A DNA stretch of 64,000 nt, taken from Candidatus Methanomethylicaceae archaeon (GTDB taxonomy: Archaea; Thermoproteota; Methanomethylicia; Methanomethylicales; Methanomethylicaceae). The notes beneath the pieces were generated by a model that was not told the origin of the DNA, searched no databases, and worked only from the letters and a program-made list of their open reading frames with translations. This document shows positions 26,702 through 50,202 of the stretch, in pieces. Location: positions 5,391-69,390 of the forward strand of contig JANXER010000002.1 in NCBI GenBank assembly GCA_025057955.1, read 5' to 3'. A program made the translations under genes and the position numbers. How positions within the stretch are numbered: the stretch's first letter is position 1; each line of letters begins with the position of its first letter.

Positions 26702-26819
26702 TGCGGGGGGTGGGATTTGAACCCACGAAGGCCTACGCCACAGGATTTCTTAGTCAGATCTTAAGTCTGGCATGCCAAAATGGCAGCCTGCCCCTTTGAC
26801 CTGGCTTGGGAACCCCCGC
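26702..26819 (-). tRNA. Intron-containing tRNA, class II architecture; candidate tRNA-Leu(UAA) with non-canonical intervening sequence(s)
   Basis: 118 nt. Acceptor GCGGGGG/CCCCCGC with A73, 3-bp D stem, T arm GTGGG-TTCAAAT-CCCAC, 13-nt variable arm. An internal CAGA-CUUAAGA-UCUG hairpin presents UAA. A GCAGG/CCUGU helix encloses about 42 nt. Confidence 0.6.
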
Positions 26820-26926: not shown

Positions 26927-27001
26927 GGGCCCGTAGCGCAGCATGGATAGCGCACCGGCCTTCTAAGTCGGTGGTCCCGGGTTCAAATCCCGGCGGGCCC
27001 G
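26927..27001 (+). tRNA. tRNA-Arg(UCU)
   Basis: Acceptor GGGCCCG/CGGGCCC. Anticodon loop CTTCTAA. T-loop TTCAAAT. Discriminator G. Confidence 0.9.
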
Positions 27002-27182
27002 CTTATTGCTTTATAAACTGCTTAATTCGAATTTTATAAATTTTTAATATTAATTAGCAATGTAAAATTTCGATTAGAGATCGCTTATCATTATTTAGGT
27101 TTCATGGTTTTATTTAATTCTTTTAATTTTCATGAGTAAAATTATAAATAGAAAAGCTAGGATTTAAAATTTTAACATTGAT

Positions 27183-41020: not shown

Positions 41021-41354
41021 GGAAATTAGAAGATTAATGCAAAGAATGGGAATGGAGCTTGAAGAGATGCAAGGGGTGGAGAAAGTAGTCATAATAATGA
41101 GTGGAAAAAATATAGTAATTCAAAGTCCACAGATAATGGTAATGAAGATAGGAGGACAAAAGGTCTATCAAATTACTGGAGAGGAGAAGGAGGAACAAGT
41201 AAAGATGGAAATAAAGATGGAAATACCCGAGGAGGATGTTCAATTAGTAGCATCACAAACAGGGGTAAGCATGGAAGAAGCAAGAAGAGCACTTGAAGCT
41301 ACAAAGGGAGATTTGGCACAAGCCATAATTCTATTAACTTCAAAAAGCTCTTAA
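41001..41354 (+). CDS. Nascent polypeptide-associated complex alpha subunit (NAC + UBA)
   Basis: NAC domain and C-terminal UBA (EEDVQLVASQTGVSMEEARRALEATKGDLAQAI). Confidence 0.8.
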   Translation: MKKMSPREIRRLMQRMGMELEEMQGVEKVVIIMSGKNIVIQSPQIMVMKIGGQKVYQITGEEKEEQVKMEIKMEIPEEDVQLVASQTGVSMEEARRALEATKGDLAQAIILLTSKSS

Positions 41355-43630
41355 AGAATATAGTGAATCGCTGAAGTAGCAAAATCTCTTTCCTCAGTGG
41401 TCCAAAAGATTGAAGGTTTAATCTTTCCAAAAACCTTGGTATACAACATTAATTTTTCTCCATCATATTCACATGATGGGCATTTAGAATAGAAGCCATA
41501 TGATATTTGCCTACATCTAGGACAATAAACATAATTCCTCGTAAAAGTAAACAATCCAATTTCTAAGGTTTCAATAATTCTTTTAACATAATTTGCAAAT
41601 ACTTCTTCCGTAGGAGCTGGTTCCTCCAATCTGAAGTCGAATAGATGTCCTCCTCTTGTTAATTTTTGAAATTCCTCCTCTATTTTTAACCTCTTTTTGA
41701 GCTCTATTGCAATATTTAGTGGTAGATTTGAATATTCAGTATAATATTTAAATTCCCTAGACTTAATATAACCGCTCTTAATATCCAAATCAGTCAATCT
41801 CTTTGAAACAGGTTCAAATGTTATACTTGAAGGAAATATTTTCATTTTTATTTTATTGGAATATTGATTAATTAAATTCATAATACTTTTTGCTAAATTT
41901 AATGAATCATTATTTTCCCATATATCATTGCCAGTGTGATATTTTATTGCCTCTGGTAAACCTATATAGCTTATAATTCCCAATGATTCATTTAATCTAA
42001 GATAGCTACTACCATCAACTTTCTCTCTAAATAGAGGAGCTAAATTGTTAGAAAATATACGCTCTTCCATTACTTGCCTTTTAATATTTAAAGCTTCAAT
42101 TGATAGTTCAATAAGCTCAGAAAGTCTCTCCTTCAGCTTATCATCATCTCCCTTAGCTTCATAGACTACTCTAGGCAAGTTTATAGTTATATTATCCAAA
42201 ATGCTAACCCTAAGCGTACTACGTTCCCAATCCTTTGAATTTGTTTCAATTCTAGATAAATCCAGATTATATACTGCATTATCAGTTTGCCATTGTGCTT
42301 CTTGATTTATAAAATAGATATTTCCAAATTTCCTCAATAGACTATAAATTTTCATTAAGCATTCTTGTGTTTCACTTAATATCAAACCCTTTTTCCTAAT
42401 CTTTATAAAGAGTGCAGGATTGAGTAATGGTTTTGAAATTCCATCAGTTTCCATTAGTGCTTCAACTAATGCTTCAAGTATTATTAAAGACTCTTTAAAG
42501 AAATCTCCATAAACATATTTATTTCCATCTGGCCCAATGAATTTCATATTTTCAAGAAAGTTTGGTACTCCAAGCTCTAAATCCAATGCCACGCGATATC
42601 TATGAGAGCCATTCAACAATAAATTAAGATAGAATATAAATTCTTTAATAGTTTTAACAACTTCCTCTTTTTGTAAACCTTTGATAAATGGCGCAAGAAA
42701 AACATTAAAAAGAGGGATTGATTGAGAAGTAGAAATATAATTGAGCGAATTCTTCAATAGAGAAGTTATAATGAGAAGGGCTCCTTTTAAGCTTGTGGAA
42801 GGCCTTGGATAGGGAAGTATTAAGCCACTTCCATCTGGATAAATCTTTCCATTAATGAAGGGCCTTATATCATGGAAAATATTTGCTGGTCTTAGAACCC
42901 AATAATTTGCATTATTTATATGAATGGCTCCACTTAGGTGTGCATCTGCAATAGTTCTTGGAATTACTTTCAAGAGCATATATTCCTCAAATACAGCATC
43001 TCCAGCTGTTGAATGTACAGCCTCTGGTGATGGATTTCCATGAAGGGCTGCATTTTTTATTGTTTGAGTAACATCATATACTGGTTGACCAAGCCTAGTA
43101 AGTACATGTCTATATTCCTCCAAACCCCTCTCAAGAAGTATGGCATTAACAAATTCTCTAATAAGAGCCGCAGTAAGATAGTGAATTTGAGATTTCTTTA
43201 ATCGTTCCTCCGCCTCCTTTGATATTACATCAGCCAGTCTTCTTGGCATATTTGCCTCACGAACTAATGCTTCAACTATTTTTCTTCTATCAAAGGGCTC
43301 TATAGTGAGTCTAGAAGTCCTTACAAGCATTTCATTCTTTTTTCTTCTCATAATATCTTCAATGCTATATACTAGATTAGAGACCTCCTGCCCTAGTGGA
43401 GTTAAATAATATTTTCCCGTGGTTTCATCTGATTTCACTAAATCAGCTTCAATCAACATTCTTAAATGATAGCCAAATTTTCCAGCATGTACTTTTGGAT
43501 CCATTTGAAGCTTTTCCATTATCTCAGTAAATGAAAGAGGGCCCTCTCTATTTATCAATTTAAGAACTTCTACTCTTATCTCATTTGAGATTGATGATAG
43601 TATAAACTCTAATGATCCTTCAAATTTCAA
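41351..43630 (-). CDS. NrdD (class III ribonucleotide reductase)-family homologue, apparently non-catalytic, with N-terminal wHTH and ATP-cone and C-terminal zinc ribbon
   Basis: 759 aa. ATP-cone (MLVRTSRLTIEPFDRRKIVEAL...). NrdD-like motifs SGAIHINNANYW, INLPRVV, SLGIISYIGLPE. Zinc ribbon CPRC..CPSC. Only one Cys outside the ribbon and no RxxGY glycyl-radical motif. Confidence 0.5.
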   Translation of the reverse strand: MKFEGSLEFILSSISNEIRVEVLKLINREGPLSFTEIMEKLQMDPKVHAGKFGYHLRMLIEADLVKSDETTGKYYLTPLGQEVSNLVYSIEDIMRRKKNEMLVRTSRLTIEPFDRRKIVEALVREANMPRRLADVISKEAEERLKKSQIHYLTAALIREFVNAILLERGLEEYRHVLTRLGQPVYDVTQTIKNAALHGNPSPEAVHSTAGDAVFEEYMLLKVIPRTIADAHLSGAIHINNANYWVLRPANIFHDIRPFINGKIYPDGSGLILPYPRPSTSLKGALLIITSLLKNSLNYISTSQSIPLFNVFLAPFIKGLQKEEVVKTIKEFIFYLNLLLNGSHRYRVALDLELGVPNFLENMKFIGPDGNKYVYGDFFKESLIILEALVEALMETDGISKPLLNPALFIKIRKKGLILSETQECLMKIYSLLRKFGNIYFINQEAQWQTDNAVYNLDLSRIETNSKDWERSTLRVSILDNITINLPRVVYEAKGDDDKLKERLSELIELSIEALNIKRQVMEERIFSNNLAPLFREKVDGSSYLRLNESLGIISYIGLPEAIKYHTGNDIWENNDSLNLAKSIMNLINQYSNKIKMKIFPSSITFEPVSKRLTDLDIKSGYIKSREFKYYTEYSNLPLNIAIELKKRLKIEEEFQKLTRGGHLFDFRLEEPAPTEEVFANYVKRIIETLEIGLFTFTRNYVYCPRCRQISYGFYSKCPSCEYDGEKLMLYTKVFGKIKPSIFWTTEERDFATSAIHYIL

Positions 43631-43657
43631 TTCTCACACCAAAAACAAATTAGAGGA

Positions 43658-44059
43658 CTAAAATTTTAGATATTTTGGTCTAAATTTAATTCCATATTGT
43701 ATTATTCCAGAGTCTCCATCTTCAGAAATTCTTCTGAATGTTTGTTCAAGTTCCATGCCAATTTTTATTTCATCAATATCTACATCAGTTATTTGAGTTA
43801 ATAGTTTTGTTCCATCCTCAAGTTCCACTAAACCAATAACATAGGGTGTTGTTTTCTCAAAGCCGGTTGGAGGATTTCTAATTATGCTAAAGGATAGAAG
43901 TATTCCTCTTTGCGGTAAATAGTATTTTTCAAATTCCGAGGCCCCACATTTATAACATTTAGTTCTTGGAGGATAATTTACATAATTACATAGCTTACAT
44001 TTCCTTGCCTCAAGTCTTATTCTATATGGCATTTCCCTCCAATATCTTGGAACTGACAT
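43658..44059 (-). CDS. DUF35 OB-fold / zinc-ribbon protein, the thiolase-HMGCS scaffold subunit
   Basis: CKLCNYVNYPPRTKCYKCG zinc ribbon plus OB-fold. Directly downstream of thiolase. Confidence 0.75.
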   Translation of the reverse strand: MSVPRYWREMPYRIRLEARKCKLCNYVNYPPRTKCYKCGASEFEKYYLPQRGILLSFSIIRNPPTGFEKTTPYVIGLVELEDGTKLLTQITDVDIDEIKIGMELEQTFRRISEDGDSGIIQYGIKFRPKYLKF

Positions 44060-46362: not shown

Positions 46363-47070
46363 TCAAGTTTTAACAAAGTTATGAAGAGATTTGATTAAAT
46401 TCTCTAAGCTCTCTTTCCTTGAAATAATTAAAGGTATTTTTTCCAAATTAGCAAGATCAATAGCAAGTCTATCCAAATTCTTTACACCATGAAGTACAAC
46501 TGCAGCTGGTTTTAGTGGAGTAACTCTTATAGCAACCATCGGTGATCTTCCAGTGGTGGTATTAGTAAATATTAAAGCTCTTTCGCTTGTTGAGCCAATA
46601 AGTTGTAAAAATTCTGAGCCAGACATGGAGATTATTGCTTTTATGCTATCTATGATGGTATATCCAAATATTAGCTTTGATGAAGCATGCTTACAAGTTA
46701 TTAGCTCACCATCTAAAGCATCAATAAGTTCCTTCAATGTAATTGGTATGGGGAATTCTCTTAAATCCAATACTGCTTCTGAATAAGATCTAGAGAAGGG
46801 TGAGAAACGCTTGATTATTTTAGCTCCTTTTTCTTCATCCAATTCCAAAAGAGCTTTAACAAAACGCTTTATGAATATAGCACCAGGAGATTTGCGCCTT
46901 CCTCCTTCATAATCACTTATTACTGAAGGAGATATACCAAGCTTTTCTGCTAATTCTAATTGAGTTACTTCAAAAATTTCTCTCCATCGACGCATAGTAT
47001 GCCCTGGAGAATCTGACAGAATTATCTCCCCAACAATTCTTTTCATTATATAATCCTTAACGGACTCCAA
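46363..47070 (-). CDS. HTH-XRE transcriptional regulator with C-terminal COG1395-like domain
   Basis: HTH (VTQLELAEKLGISPSVISDYEGG). Confidence 0.55.
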   Translation of the reverse strand: MESVKDYIMKRIVGEIILSDSPGHTMRRWREIFEVTQLELAEKLGISPSVISDYEGGRRKSPGAIFIKRFVKALLELDEEKGAKIIKRFSPFSRSYSEAVLDLREFPIPITLKELIDALDGELITCKHASSKLIFGYTIIDSIKAIISMSGSEFLQLIGSTSERALIFTNTTTGRSPMVAIRVTPLKPAAVVLHGVKNLDRLAIDLANLEKIPLIISRKESLENLIKSLHNFVKT

Positions 47071-47583: not shown

Positions 47584-48639
47584 TCACTCAAGTAATTGAA
47601 CAGATGAGGCTTTAAAGGCTAAGAATATTCTCTCTCCTACTTTCAAATTCATATCTTCAAGAGATTTTCTTGTTATTTGAACATAAAAATCTCTTATTGA
47701 ATTTACTTTAATTCTAACCAATGATCCCATATCTATTATTTGTACAATTCTTCCCTCTAATGAATTTCTTGCACTTGAAATTATTGGATTTAGAGATAAT
47801 ATTATATCCTCAGGAGGAATGAAAATTGTAACATATCCCTCTTTCTTGAAGGTTGCTTCTATTTGTAATCCACCTATGTCTATTATAGAAGTTCCATATG
47901 GTGAAATTCTAGATATCCCATGAAAAACATTTTCCCCTCTACTAAAAATAGGAATATTTGATTTATTAAAAATTTCATTAAAACTACCAATTCTTTCAAT
48001 TTTACCCATATTTAATACAGCAATTCTATCAGCAAGCTTCTCTACTTGAGAGATATTATGGGTGGACATTATGATTGTAGTATTTCTCTCATCATTAATT
48101 CTTAATAACACTTCCTCAATTATGGATGCATTCCTTGGATCGAGATTTGATGTAGGTTCATCCAATAATAATAAATTTGGCTCATAAACTAATGATTGAG
48201 CCAAGGCGACTCTTTGAGCCTCACCACCAGACAGCCCAAGCGCATTCTTTTCTCCTAAATTTTCTATTTTTAAAAGTTTCATAACTTCTTCCACTTTATT
48301 TCTAATAAGATTTCTATCATAGCCTCTTACTTTTAATGGATAAGCAATATTATTAAATACACTCATATTAAAGAGTATGGGCTGCTGAAAAACTAGTCCG
48401 ATTTTTCTTCTCAAATTGAGGTTATCCCTTCCATAGTCTATGATTTCATCATTGAATATAACTAAACCACTTGTTGGAGATTCAATTAATCCAATTATTC
48501 TTAGGAGGGTGGTTTTTCCAGCTCCACTCGGTCCAACTATAGCAAAAAACTCACTTTTTCCAATCTTAAAACTAACTTTATCAAGTACTAATAATCCTGA
48601 GTATTCCTTTGATAACTCCCTTACTTCAATACTTATCAA
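47584..48639 (-). CDS. Molybdate/tungstate ABC transporter ATP-binding protein (ModC/WtpC type with C-terminal TOBE domain)
   Basis: Walker A GPSGAGKTT, LSGGE, and a C-terminal TOBE-like domain. Confidence 0.8.
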   Translation of the reverse strand: MISIEVRELSKEYSGLLVLDKVSFKIGKSEFFAIVGPSGAGKTTLLRIIGLIESPTSGLVIFNDEIIDYGRDNLNLRRKIGLVFQQPILFNMSVFNNIAYPLKVRGYDRNLIRNKVEEVMKLLKIENLGEKNALGLSGGEAQRVALAQSLVYEPNLLLLDEPTSNLDPRNASIIEEVLLRINDERNTTIIMSTHNISQVEKLADRIAVLNMGKIERIGSFNEIFNKSNIPIFSRGENVFHGISRISPYGTSIIDIGGLQIEATFKKEGYVTIFIPPEDIILSLNPIISSARNSLEGRIVQIIDMGSLVRIKVNSIRDFYVQITRKSLEDMNLKVGERIFLAFKASSVQLLE

Positions 48640-48640
48640 A

Positions 48641-49312
48641 TTATCTTCTCACCCATTTAAGTTGAACTATTGTAAGGGATAGGTTTATTACAAAAGCTAT
48701 TGTTAATAAGATTGCTCCTAATGTGAGCGCCATGCTGAAGTTTCCTAATTCCGTCTCTACAATTATTGCTGTAGTTAATGTGCGAGTGAGCCATCTTATA
48801 TTTCCTCCAGTTATAATTATTCCACCAACTTCAGATATTGCTGCACCAAATGCGGTTATTATAGAAGTTAATATGCCTATTTTAGCCTCTCTTAATACTA
48901 GAAATAATGTTTGCCATTGAGTGGCTCCAAGAGAAAGCGCTCTCTCCCTTATCGTTTTTTCAATACTACTGACTGATGACATTGTAATTCCAATTATAAT
49001 TGGAATTACTTCAATTAATTGTGTTAATATCATAGCGCTTGGAGTATATAATAAATTGAGCCAACCTAATGGACCAGTAGGCGCTAATAGTAAATATACA
49101 ACTAAACCAACAATAACAGGGGGCAGCCCCATAAATGTATTTACTATGCTCTTTATCATAACATCAATAAGGCGAATCAATGTCATTTTACCTCTGAATT
49201 GTTTAAGGCCTAGAAAGGCACCTATTGGTATTCCTATTAGCGATCCTATAATAACGGAAGTTCCAGAGACCCTTAAGGATAGAAAAGTTATATTAAGAAT
49301 TTCCTCCATCAT
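48641..49312 (-). CDS. Molybdate/tungstate ABC transporter permease
   Basis: 223 aa with an EAA-loop-type permease pattern. Confidence 0.8.
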   Translation of the reverse strand: MMEEILNITFLSLRVSGTSVIIGSLIGIPIGAFLGLKQFRGKMTLIRLIDVMIKSIVNTFMGLPPVIVGLVVYLLLAPTGPLGWLNLLYTPSAMILTQLIEVIPIIIGITMSSVSSIEKTIRERALSLGATQWQTLFLVLREAKIGILTSIITAFGAAISEVGGIIITGGNIRWLTRTLTTAIIVETELGNFSMALTLGAILLTIAFVINLSLTIVQLKWVRR

Positions 49313-50202
49313 TCAGCCTCCATTTCATACCAAATTATTTCTTCCTCTTGATTTGGATAGCCCAATTTTCGAGCTAAATCTAAGTCTCTAGCAAAGGGAA
49401 TAAATAAGGATTGATTAAATTTTTTAAAGGATGCTATAAGGCTTTGCCCTTCATCTGAAATCAACCATTTGACTAACATTACTGCGCCTTTGAAATTTCT
49501 ATTTGGATAAACCTCTGGATTTACAAGAATGCAAGAGTATGGATTTATGAGATCTTTGTCCCTCTCAACAAGAACTCTCAAGTTCTTAAATTCAAATGAT
49601 AACCAAGTTGCTCTATCAGTAAGCGTATAAGCATGCTTATTATCCGCCATTCTTAGGACTGTTCCCATATCTGCTCCAGTTTCAAAATACCATGTACTAT
49701 TTGATGGATTTATTCCCAATTTCTTCCATAGTTTTAACTCTAAAATATGTGTACCTGATCTATCAGCCCTTGAGATGAAAATTGCGCCACCCTTGGAGCC
49801 CTCTAGTGCAATTCTTCTAAAGGCCTCAGTGGCATTATTAAGATCGCTTATATTTGCTGGATCATTAATTGGACCGACAATTATAAAATCATTATACATT
49901 ATTCCTATTCTATGAACTCCATAGGATGAATTCAAAAAATCGAATTCAAGTTCCTTTGAATGTACTAATATTAAATCCACAGCTCCTCTTTTTGCCATCT
50001 CCATAGCCCTTCCAGTTCCAACAGGAATGACATATACCTTAATACCATATTTTGATTCAAAATTTGATAATAAATAATCAAAAATTCCAGAATTATATAC
50101 ACTTGTTGTAGTTGCAATAAAAATTGAATTTGAACTTTTTTCAAATAAGTTAATGGAAATTATAATTAGAGCTATTAAGGTGAAAATTAAAAGCTTTTTC
50201 AT
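49309..50202 (-). CDS. Tungstate/molybdate substrate-binding protein (WtpA/ModA type)
   Basis: N-terminal TM/signal segment. PBP-like. Confidence 0.65.
   Translation of the reverse strand: MKKLLIFTLIALIIISINLFEKSSNSIFIATTTSVYNSGIFDYLLSNFESKYGIKVYVIPVGTGRAMEMAKRGAVDLILVHSKELEFDFLNSSYGVHRIGIMYNDFIIVGPINDPANISDLNNATEAFRRIALEGSKGGAIFISRADRSGTHILELKLWKKLGINPSNSTWYFETGADMGTVLRMADNKHAYTLTDRATWLSFEFKNLRVLVERDKDLINPYSCILVNPEVYPNRNFKGAVMLVKWLISDEGQSLIASFKKFNQSLFIPFARDLDLARKLGYPNQEEEIIWYEMEAE

Follow-up and report, generated by a model that had tools for sequence, protein, structure and literature searches.

The window analysed here is the whole stretch of 64,000 nucleotides taken from contig JANXER010000002.1 of a Candidatus Methanomethylicaceae archaeon, and its GC content is low (about 33%). 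On its reverse strand lies a gene whose 759-residue product combines an ArsR/SmtB-like winged helix-turn-helix (wHTH), an ATP-cone and a core with the fold of NrdD, the class III ribonucleotide reductase (RNR). Homologues of this protein are found in many archaea, and they are referred to below as the family. Public databases annotate them either as 'anaerobic ribonucleoside-triphosphate reductase' or as 'helix-turn-helix domain-containing protein'. The gene and the domains of its product have the following positions in the window.

41351..43630, reverse strand: whole gene, encoding the 759-residue protein of wHTH, ATP-cone and catalytically dead NrdD fold (open reading frame (ORF), Pfam and AlphaFold2 (AF2) model).
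43373..43597, reverse strand: ArsR/SmtB-like wHTH, residues 12-86, with recognition helix H-AGKFGYHLRML (Pfam and Foldseek).
43112..43330, reverse strand: ATP-cone, residues 101-173 (Pfam PF03477, 31.3 bits against a cutoff of 25.8).
41399..43036, reverse strand: catalytically dead core of NrdD origin with a 10-stranded barrel, plus the C-terminal domain, residues 199-744 (Pfam NRDD).
41471..41524, reverse strand: zinc ribbon of the form CxxC...CxxC, with C703, C706, C717 and C720 (aligned to the Zn ribbons of NrdD from E. coli and archaea).

The reading frame starts with a TTG codon 27 nt past the stop codon of a DUF35 (zf-ChsH2/OB) gene, and a GGTG ribosome-binding site lies 7 nt 5′ of this start. 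A preliminary description of the DNA had proposed an ArsR-like winged helix, an ATP-cone and a class III RNR-like core with a ribbon, to be checked by hidden Markov model (HMM) searches and structure prediction, and both approaches bear the three-part architecture out. Pfam finds all three domains. The wHTH is recognised by DUF7347 (1.5e-9), HTH_20 (29.8 bits, cutoff 27) and HTH_5 (27.6 bits, cutoff 22), and NRDD (PF13597) extends over residues 199-744 with an E-value of 1.9e-67, covering model positions 6-549 of 562. The NCBIfam equivalog model for NrdD, TIGR02487, gives the window protein 215 bits, which is below its cutoff of 326 bits. The full-length AF2 model, built on an alignment of 61 sequences, has a mean predicted local distance difference test score (pLDDT) of 86.9, and its best 36 matches in the PDB are all NrdD structures with a TM-score, normalised by target, of 0.67-0.77; pyruvate formate-lyase and class I/II RNRs rank after them. 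When the N-terminal 200 residues were modelled alone (pLDDT 86.1), the best PDB match of the ATP-cone was the ATP-loaded NrdR 7p37, and the wHTH matched HlyU, BigR, CadC, CzrA and SmtB with a root mean square deviation of about 2 Å (2.0-2.8 Å) and a TMt of 0.66-0.76. The secondary structure of the wHTH in this N-terminal AF2 model consists of helices at residues 17-29, 34-40 and 45-61 followed by strands at 65-68 and 73-76.

Catalytic and substrate-binding residues were mapped by aligning the family HMM to E. coli NrdD, by phmmer comparison with the PDB sequences from T. maritima and P. copri, and by a MAFFT alignment with two bona fide archaeal NrdDs encoded next to family members. The sites of interest in the window protein are these.

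42881..42883, reverse strand: Asn250, at the site of the βA catalytic Cys (E. coli C175, T. maritima C125; HMM, phmmer and MAFFT alignments).
42254..42256, reverse strand: Ser459 in LDL-S-RIE, where NrdD has the finger-loop Cys that forms the thiyl radical (E. coli C384; three alignments).
42911..42922, reverse strand: H-I-N-N, residues 237-240, at the site of the HxHD triphosphate-binding motif (alignments; codons checked).
43046..43054, reverse strand: N-A-A, residues 193-195, at the site of the NxN substrate flap (MAFFT alignment; codons checked).
41423..41437, reverse strand: K-V-F-G735-K, a degenerate glycyl-radical motif (canonical R-V-x-G-Y; aligned with T. maritima RIVGY and archaeal RITGY/RVTGY).

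Both catalytic cysteines are gone, as the preliminary description had held, since E. coli C175 corresponds to Asn250 and C384 to Ser459. Its count of a single Cys outside the ribbon was also right, the cysteines of the protein being 424, 703, 706, 717 and 720 only. In functional NrdD the thiyl-radical Cys is the third residue of the MGCR/MCCR finger-loop motif (Burnim et al. preprint), and the βA position is Glu, Asp or Asn across the family. The HxHD motif binds the triphosphate in NrdD, and together with the NxN flap it serves to recognise triphosphate and ribose of the substrate (PMC11226230); the change of Asp to Asn240 in the former is a fixed switch across the family, and the latter reads NAN (ENANL) in E. 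coli and in the bona fide neighbour NrdDs. The motif parallels with class III RNR that had been drawn earlier against T4 NrdD were checked against E. coli NrdD instead, and they hold: IHINNANYW corresponds to IHYHDLDYS, INLPRVV to LNLPRIA and GIISYIGLPE to SLGYIGIHE. The claim that the glycyl-radical motif is lost stands only in part. A literal RxxGY is absent, the flanking Arg and Tyr being replaced, but the radical Gly itself is present as Gly735, because K-V-F-G735-K is aligned to RIVG621Y of T. maritima and to RITGY of archaeal NrdD. Across the Methanomethylicia clade the Gly is conserved as [KR][VTI][FY]G[KR]. The alignments thus confirm the proposed loss of catalytic residues at the two Cys sites but not at the Gly site.

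Since the thiyl Cys is absent, RNR chemistry is impossible despite Gly735, and the earlier statement that the protein cannot perform thiyl-radical chemistry therefore holds with Ser459 and Asn250 in place of the two cysteines. With thiyl Cys, βA Cys, HxHD motif and NxN flap all gone the protein is unable to reduce ribonucleotides, and because the HxHD motif, the flap and the TPAES loop are missing, the former active site has probably lost its ability to bind substrate. We are highly confident that the window protein is not an RNR. We advise against classing it as an NrdD enzyme, as it fails on four catalytic or substrate-binding features and on the equivalog cutoff.

The window protein belongs to a large family. 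A protein search with it gave more than 1000 matches, and the best 120 of these, which were inspected for architecture, all combine wHTH, ATP-cone and NRDD. Among these 120, relatives in Methanomethylicia/Verstraetearchaeota have 55-90% identity, and those in Bathyarchaeia together with one Freyarchaeota (Asgard) entry about 40%. At least 583 confirmed matched stretches were obtained in a scan of one genome per GTDB species. The matches listed include Methanomethylicia, Bathyarchaeia, Culexarchaeia and Asgard archaea, with Culexmicrobium, Jordarchaeia and Promethearchaeota also among them; for Ca. Methanosuratincola verstraetei, Ca. Bathyarchaeum tardum and Ca. Atabeyarchaeum the match is in a complete genome.

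When 119 full-length homologues are aligned, 122 columns show at least 95% conservation across phyla. Invariant residues are G50, F52, Y54 and H55 of the recognition helix, V103, R104, S106, E111, F113, I118, R158 and E159 of the ATP-cone, and all four cysteines of the ribbon (C703, C706, C717 and C720). The full catalytic set of thiyl Cys, βA Cys and Gly occurs in none of the 119 homologues, and thiyl Cys and Gly occur together in one, with Glu at the βA position. In Methanomethylicia the thiyl position is Ser and the Gly is retained; a TGCR finger loop is kept by most Bathyarchaeia members, but their RVSAK places Ala at the radical Gly. These patterns indicate that clades have lost different catalytic residues, and that the window protein is one member of a large family and no singular oddity. 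Set against the 55 closest bona fide NrdDs, the family keeps 66 (27%) of the 241 columns that are conserved to at least 90% in those enzymes; the NxN flap, HxHD, the finger loop QCC and the TPAES, YYTNS and SRxTGYYQ motifs are among the 171 that it has lost. A further 74 columns are conserved in the family only and are concentrated in the ATP-cone and the linker.

All three domains are under strong purifying selection. Compared with the closest relative, the ratio of nonsynonymous to synonymous substitution rates (dN/dS) is 0.106 overall, 0.123 in the core, 0.087 in the wHTH and 0.035 in the ATP-cone, which is the most constrained part of the protein. A search with residues 1-200 only against 1.84 billion cluster representatives (50% identity clusters) found this N-terminal module in 869 clusters at E ≤ 1e-3 and in 127 at E ≤ 1e-30. 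In the best 150 of the 869 clusters the module is intact and the attached NrdD core is progressively decayed; many of these 150 are without the Zn ribbon and glycyl-radical domain, and some have so diverged that NRDD can hardly be recognised. An intact module with a decaying core is the pattern expected of a pseudoenzyme scaffold carried on a functional regulatory module.

Some further observations on family members and their relatives deserve mention. Nine short proteins of 144-330 aa (P0134, P0154, P0157, P0187, P0191, P0194, P0198, P0201 and P0234) consist of wHTH and ATP-cone alone; they are possibly contig-end fragments or else genuine stand-alone NrdR-like archaeal proteins. Near the parent clade, the bona fide archaeal NrdDs P0331-P0346 (about 1140-1170 aa) comprise several with intein/LAGLIDADG insertions (PF14528, PF14890), some of them from Archaeoglobales. 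The closest locus, L021 (83% amino acid identity), is labelled Aenigmatarchaeota, a doubtful label for what is probably a mis-binned or mislabelled contig of a metagenome-assembled genome. The same probably applies to L055, which has a typical Bathyarchaeia-type locus and is labelled Krumholzibacteriaceae bacterium.

The genomic surroundings of the family gene differ between lineages. The window and all close relatives have the genes for an HTH_3 protein, HMG-CoA synthase (HMGCS), thiolase and DUF35 and the family gene in succession on one strand, the family gene beginning 27-80 nt past the HMGCS-thiolase-DUF35 trio, and the genes for NAC, a PUA protein and the proteasome-activating nucleotidase PAN are convergent to it. 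In Bathyarchaeia a bona fide nrdD lies directly 3′ of the family gene on the same strand, often after a gene for a glutaredoxin-like (grx) protein of about 101 aa, and the products of these neighbour nrdD genes carry RPFC, a CC[RA] finger loop and R[VI][TV]GY. The context sample comprised 80 species loci, of which 21 were too short downstream and 59 were informative. A bona fide nrdD is found directly downstream in 29 of the 59, all labelled Bathyarchaeia or related Thermoproteota, and is lacking there in the other 30, which include every Methanomethylicia, Asgard and Culexarchaeia locus. Further downstream pyrB/pyrI, NAC and PUA genes are present in some Bathyarchaeia loci, and an HMG-CoA reductase gene lies directly upstream in one locus (L006). 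Over residues 89-748 the window protein is 30% identical to one of the bona fide neighbour NrdDs (L006b), an archaeal NrdD of the double-Cys (QCCR) type. A tandem duplication of such a double-Cys NrdD is the most likely origin of the family, and the nrdD-pyrBI segment was most likely lost later from the family-gene site in Methanomethylicia.

The intergenic region between the family gene and grx-nrdD contains invariant blocks within otherwise unalignable DNA in 13 species of the Bathyarchaeum group. An unsupervised Gibbs sampler, run over all 28 usable intergenic regions, returned a near-palindrome of 16-17 bp, RTACA[GA]AATTTTATAC (compare GTAYAAAA-TTTTRTAC). This near-palindrome, ATACAGAATTTTATAC, is an element of the Bathyarchaeia grx-nrdD promoters (L004 and L023-L082, e.g. 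L071 12349-12365 and L004 10494-10510). It is located 7-9 nt 5′ of CTAAAAAATTAAATA, which resembles a B recognition element (BRE) and TATA box, and a further box, TGTYAATTT, lies 11-14 nt 5′ of the near-palindrome. A position weight matrix (PWM) made from 24 sites was used to scan 1.26 Mb of loci on both strands. It gave 23 matches of at least 20 bits, one per locus and all at the grx-nrdD promoter position, including loci outside the training set (L004, L049, L063 and L076), and no match of that score in the shuffled-sequence control. The near-palindrome is missing before nrdD in three lineages that have no adjoining family gene, Archaeoglobus and Hydrothermarchaeales among them. This conservation shows that the nrdD promoter beside the family gene is under an unusual sequence constraint, of the kind a dimeric wHTH protein would impose.

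Conserved boxes are also found in front of the family gene itself. A second box, the 15-mer TAATTTTTTA[AG]AC, occurs in 25 of the 80 loci (among L007-L086), always directly upstream of the family gene and nowhere else; in Bathyarchaeia it lies about 40 nt upstream (e.g. L071 about 9925). It is possibly an autoregulatory site, or just an unusually conserved promoter. A TAATTTTTTAAAC box stands before the family gene in Bathyarchaeia. In the window the short gap behind DUF35 is arranged as follows.

43631..43670, reverse strand: short upstream region with, in this order, a TATA-like TCTAAAATTTTAG that overlaps the stop codon of DUF35, CTCTAATTTG and the GGTG ribosome-binding site (sequence).

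A comparable T-rich box (CCTACAYCTTTTTTAGAC) is present at the same place in related Methanomethylicia loci, and CTYTAATTTTTTAAAC in Bathyarchaeia, which suggests that the TATA-like box may act as a promoter of the family gene's own. A scan for sigma-70 promoters and terminators around the family gene gave no more matches than shuffled sequence, with a model that is not applicable to archaea. It may be added that a more symmetric copy of the palindrome (ATACAGAAATTTGTATA) persists 3′ of the family gene in those Bathyarchaeia loci from which the adjoining nrdD has disappeared (L040 2640-2760 and L057 about 12349), and that the copy in L040 precedes an 85-aa Cys-rich ORF and a convergent pyrB.

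The hypothesis that we favour, and consider somewhat better than an even bet, is that the family protein is a nucleotide-sensing DNA-binding regulator which was converted from an archaeal class III RNR. Class III RNRs are obligate dimers, and for this reason the NrdD-derived dead core could supply the dimer and serve as a dimerisation scaffold. Such a dimer would set two winged helices on a palindromic operator. The ATP-cone would bind ATP or dATP and thereby alter the oligomeric state or the domain geometry, as it does in NrdD and NrdR, so that DNA binding, and hence transcription of nrdD with or without other genes of nucleotide metabolism, would track the dATP/ATP ratio. What bears on such nucleotide binding is the conservation of the ATP-cone residues and the very low dN/dS of this domain. 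Extended to its full reach, the hypothesis says that many anaerobic archaea, in Methanomethylicia, Bathyarchaeia, Culexarchaeia and Asgard lineages, may control the synthesis of deoxyribonucleoside triphosphates (dNTPs) via an unrecognised master regulator, a duplicated class III RNR that lost catalysis, gained a winged helix, reads dATP/ATP by its ATP-cone and switches transcription of the real nrdD. This wider proposal is a tentative one, to which we give somewhat less than an even chance. A regulator of this kind, sensing the nucleotide pool like NrdR, had been suggested in the preliminary description, and the suggestion gains from the dead core, the selected domains, the ArsR-like wHTH, the NrdR-like cone and the adjacency to nrdD and the palindrome in Bathyarchaeia. 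It does not gain from the lineage of the window, which has neither an adjoining RNR gene nor the motif.

Several observations weigh against a regulator of nrdD. The window holds no other NrdD-like sequence, as tblastn with E. coli NrdD and two archaeal NrdDs matches the family gene only. A real archaeal NrdD used as database query gave no match assignable to Methanomethylicia, most matches being without a lineage name, and nrdD adjoins the family gene in none of the 15 Methanomethylicia loci with downstream sequence. The Bathyarchaeia motif scores at best 15.4 bits in the window, which is noise level, and the Methanomethylicia, Asgard and Culexarchaeia loci likewise give noise only (≤16 bits). 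A shared operator would be expected because the recognition helix is nearly invariant across phyla, and none was found outside Bathyarchaeia in the DNA scanned. The adjacency in Bathyarchaeia may itself be a mere relic of the tandem duplication. Such a relic is plausible because the family is most similar to the neighbour type of NrdD and because the wider order of pyrB/pyrI, NAC and PUA represents ancestral synteny, and with tandem duplication and segment loss both likely, adjacency alone is weak evidence of a functional link. Finally, we infer DNA binding, nucleotide binding and regulation of RNR genes by the family protein from its sequence, and the same is true of its role as the binder of the palindrome in the nrdD promoter, which another factor could bind instead. 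In the window's own lineage we consider nrdD as the target less likely than a regulatory function in itself. Besides the family gene, the only ORFs of RNR size in the window are those of PolD and DUF2070, and no NrdG activase (radical SAM) was recognised among its annotated ORFs.

Other explanations must be weighed against a DNA-binding regulator of RNR genes. The dead paralogue might be a non-catalytic prozyme partner that heterodimerises with real NrdD via the dimer interface and modulates its activity or stability, the winged helix being an accessory without a role on DNA. The tandem arrangement with bona fide nrdD in 29 of the 59 informative loci would suit such a partner, and so would the well-conserved scaffold, which has the LAPF, NLPR and GG motifs in common with real NrdDs; dead paralogues are moreover known as subunits in RNR biology, e.g. 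yeast Rnr4, the inactive R2 partner of Rnr2. However, this explanation leaves the ArsR-type wHTH with its near-invariant recognition helix, the most constant feature of the family, without a reason, and the neighbouring real NrdDs have an ATP-cone-like N-terminus of their own and need not borrow one. The decay of the core to a barely detectable NRDD in many members also fits poorly with a precise heterodimer interface, and the family gene is not located beside nrdD in Methanomethylicia or Asgard loci. We regard a prozyme as unlikely. Also improbable in our judgement is a DNA-binding regulator that acts on non-RNR genes, either the mevalonate genes for HMG-CoA synthase, thiolase and DUF35 or pyrB/pyrI, by which lipid or pyrimidine synthesis would be coupled to the adenine nucleotide pool. 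The constant position of the family gene shortly 3′ of the HMGCS-thiolase-DUF35 trio, which the window shares with all its close relatives, the HMG-CoA reductase gene upstream of it in L006, and the pyrB/pyrI genes that follow nrdD or pseudo-nrdD in several Bathyarchaeia loci speak for such targets. Yet the gene order looks like inherited synteny, the family gene has a promoter-like box of its own in the short gap after DUF35, and the sole strongly conserved palindrome found precedes grx-nrdD and not the mevalonate or pyr genes.

We consider it very improbable that the protein is still an enzyme, whether of glycyl-radical or of nucleotide-processing type, that has diverged and relies on Gly735 or on what is left of the pocket for a changed chemistry. 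Gly735 is kept in the Methanomethylicia clade, the Zn ribbon is invariant in the close family, and the core is under purifying selection (dN/dS 0.12), which speaks for a surviving activity. Against it, the Cys/Cys/Gly set is found in 0 and thiyl Cys with Gly in 1 of the 119 aligned members, Bathyarchaeia members have Ala at the Gly site, and more distant members lack the whole C-terminal domain and keep the N-terminal module. None of the substrate-binding motifs HxHD, NxN, TPAES and YYTNS is left, the K...K flanks of the Gly do not fit the RVxG[YF] motif recognised by the activase, and the loss of different catalytic residues by clade contradicts retained chemistry. From the database name 'anaerobic ribonucleoside-triphosphate reductase' that relatives bear, one could suspect a real nrdD that is decaying into a pseudogene or that only appears altered through errors of assembly or sequencing. 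This explanation is refuted for all practical purposes, since the reading frame is intact over 759 aa, dN/dS is about 0.1, and the same substitutions recur in dozens of independent assemblies at 55-90% identity.

Some other features of the window are recorded here in their own right. The HTH_3 (XRE-type) domain directly upstream of the HMG-CoA synthase/thiolase/DUF35 trio is the N-terminal part of a 235-aa protein (46363-47070, reverse strand). An HTH_3 protein precedes the HMGCS trio also in L003, L005 and L016, and it is a conserved partner and possibly a regulator of the archaeal genes for entry into the mevalonate pathway. At 47584-50202 on the reverse strand an ABC transporter is encoded, with a TOBE-domain ATPase, a permease and a PBP_like_2 binding protein, resembling transporters for molybdate, tungstate or phosphate. 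It sits between tRNA-Pro and an FAD-dependent oxidoreductase, is absent from the syntenic L003 and looks like a lineage-specific insertion. A tRNA match of 118 nt at 26702-26819 on the reverse strand (35 bits with Rfam, no call by ARAGORN) adjoins tRNA-Arg (26927-27002) and is probably an intron-containing archaeal tRNA gene.

The regulation of archaeal RNR genes is largely unknown, and the family, which occurs in hundreds of species of archaea and joins an ATP-cone with a DNA-binding domain, is a concrete and testable candidate for this role; for Bathyarchaeia a candidate operator sequence is supplied too. Should the regulator hypothesis be true, the family would be a clear case of an enzyme turned regulator of its own paralogue, with clades losing different catalytic residues, and archaea would possess a counterpart of NrdR that evolved independently from the very enzyme it regulates. 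The name 'anaerobic ribonucleoside-triphosphate reductase' is probably wrong for hundreds of database entries, which affects metabolic reconstructions that infer anaerobic dNTP synthesis from it.

The combination of wHTH, ATP-cone and dead NrdD was thought in the preliminary description to be new. No description of it was found in the searchable literature, in which DUF7347, pseudoenzyme NrdD, and RNR in Verstraetearchaeota, Methanosuratincola and Bathyarchaeota were covered; a Tn7 preprint and a chromo-domain paper name nrdD in unrelated contexts only. The large RNR phylogeny in the preprint of Burnim et al. sorts class III enzymes by finger-loop motif, and a search of that text yielded no mention of inactive or DNA-binding class III forms.

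With NrdD itself the window protein shares the full-length fold, the N-terminal ATP-cone, the C-terminal Zn ribbon and the LAPF, NLPR and GG motifs. It differs from NrdD by the changes of thiyl Cys to Ser, βA Cys to Asn, HxHD to HxNN and NxN to NxA, by the KVFGK sequence and by the extra N-terminal wHTH. This wHTH has the fold of the ArsR/SmtB repressors HlyU, BigR, CadC, CzrA and SmtB and of DUF7347, including an HL-containing recognition helix. In contrast to these repressors, the window protein has no metal or redox sensor sites, the sensor would instead be the ATP-cone, and dimerisation presumably comes from the NrdD core and not from the ArsR α1/α5 helices. Yeast Rnr4 is similar in being a catalytically dead paralogue of an RNR subunit that is kept under selection, but it is a β (radical-generating) subunit and a heterodimer partner, and it has no DNA-binding domain.

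A further comparison is that with NrdR, which is described as occurring in most bacteria but in archaea only in some (PMC9110341), and whose function is experimentally established (PMC9110341, PMC12176259), where that of the family protein is proposed from sequence. Both join a DNA-binding module to an ATP-cone, for which 7p37 is the best PDB match, and both have a genomic link to an RNR gene with a conserved repeat element in the promoter, in the family's case in Bathyarchaeia. NrdR, however, has an N-terminal Zn ribbon instead of a wHTH, is about 150 aa long and lacks an RNR-fold domain (about 550 aa in the family protein); NrdR boxes are other sequences, and homology between the two proteins is limited to the ATP-cone. 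The window protein is thus not a member of the NrdR family but at most a possible analogue. In both, under the proposal made here, DNA binding would be governed by the dATP/ATP ratio, and the family protein would be an archaeal functional analogue of bacterial NrdR that was assembled from different parts.

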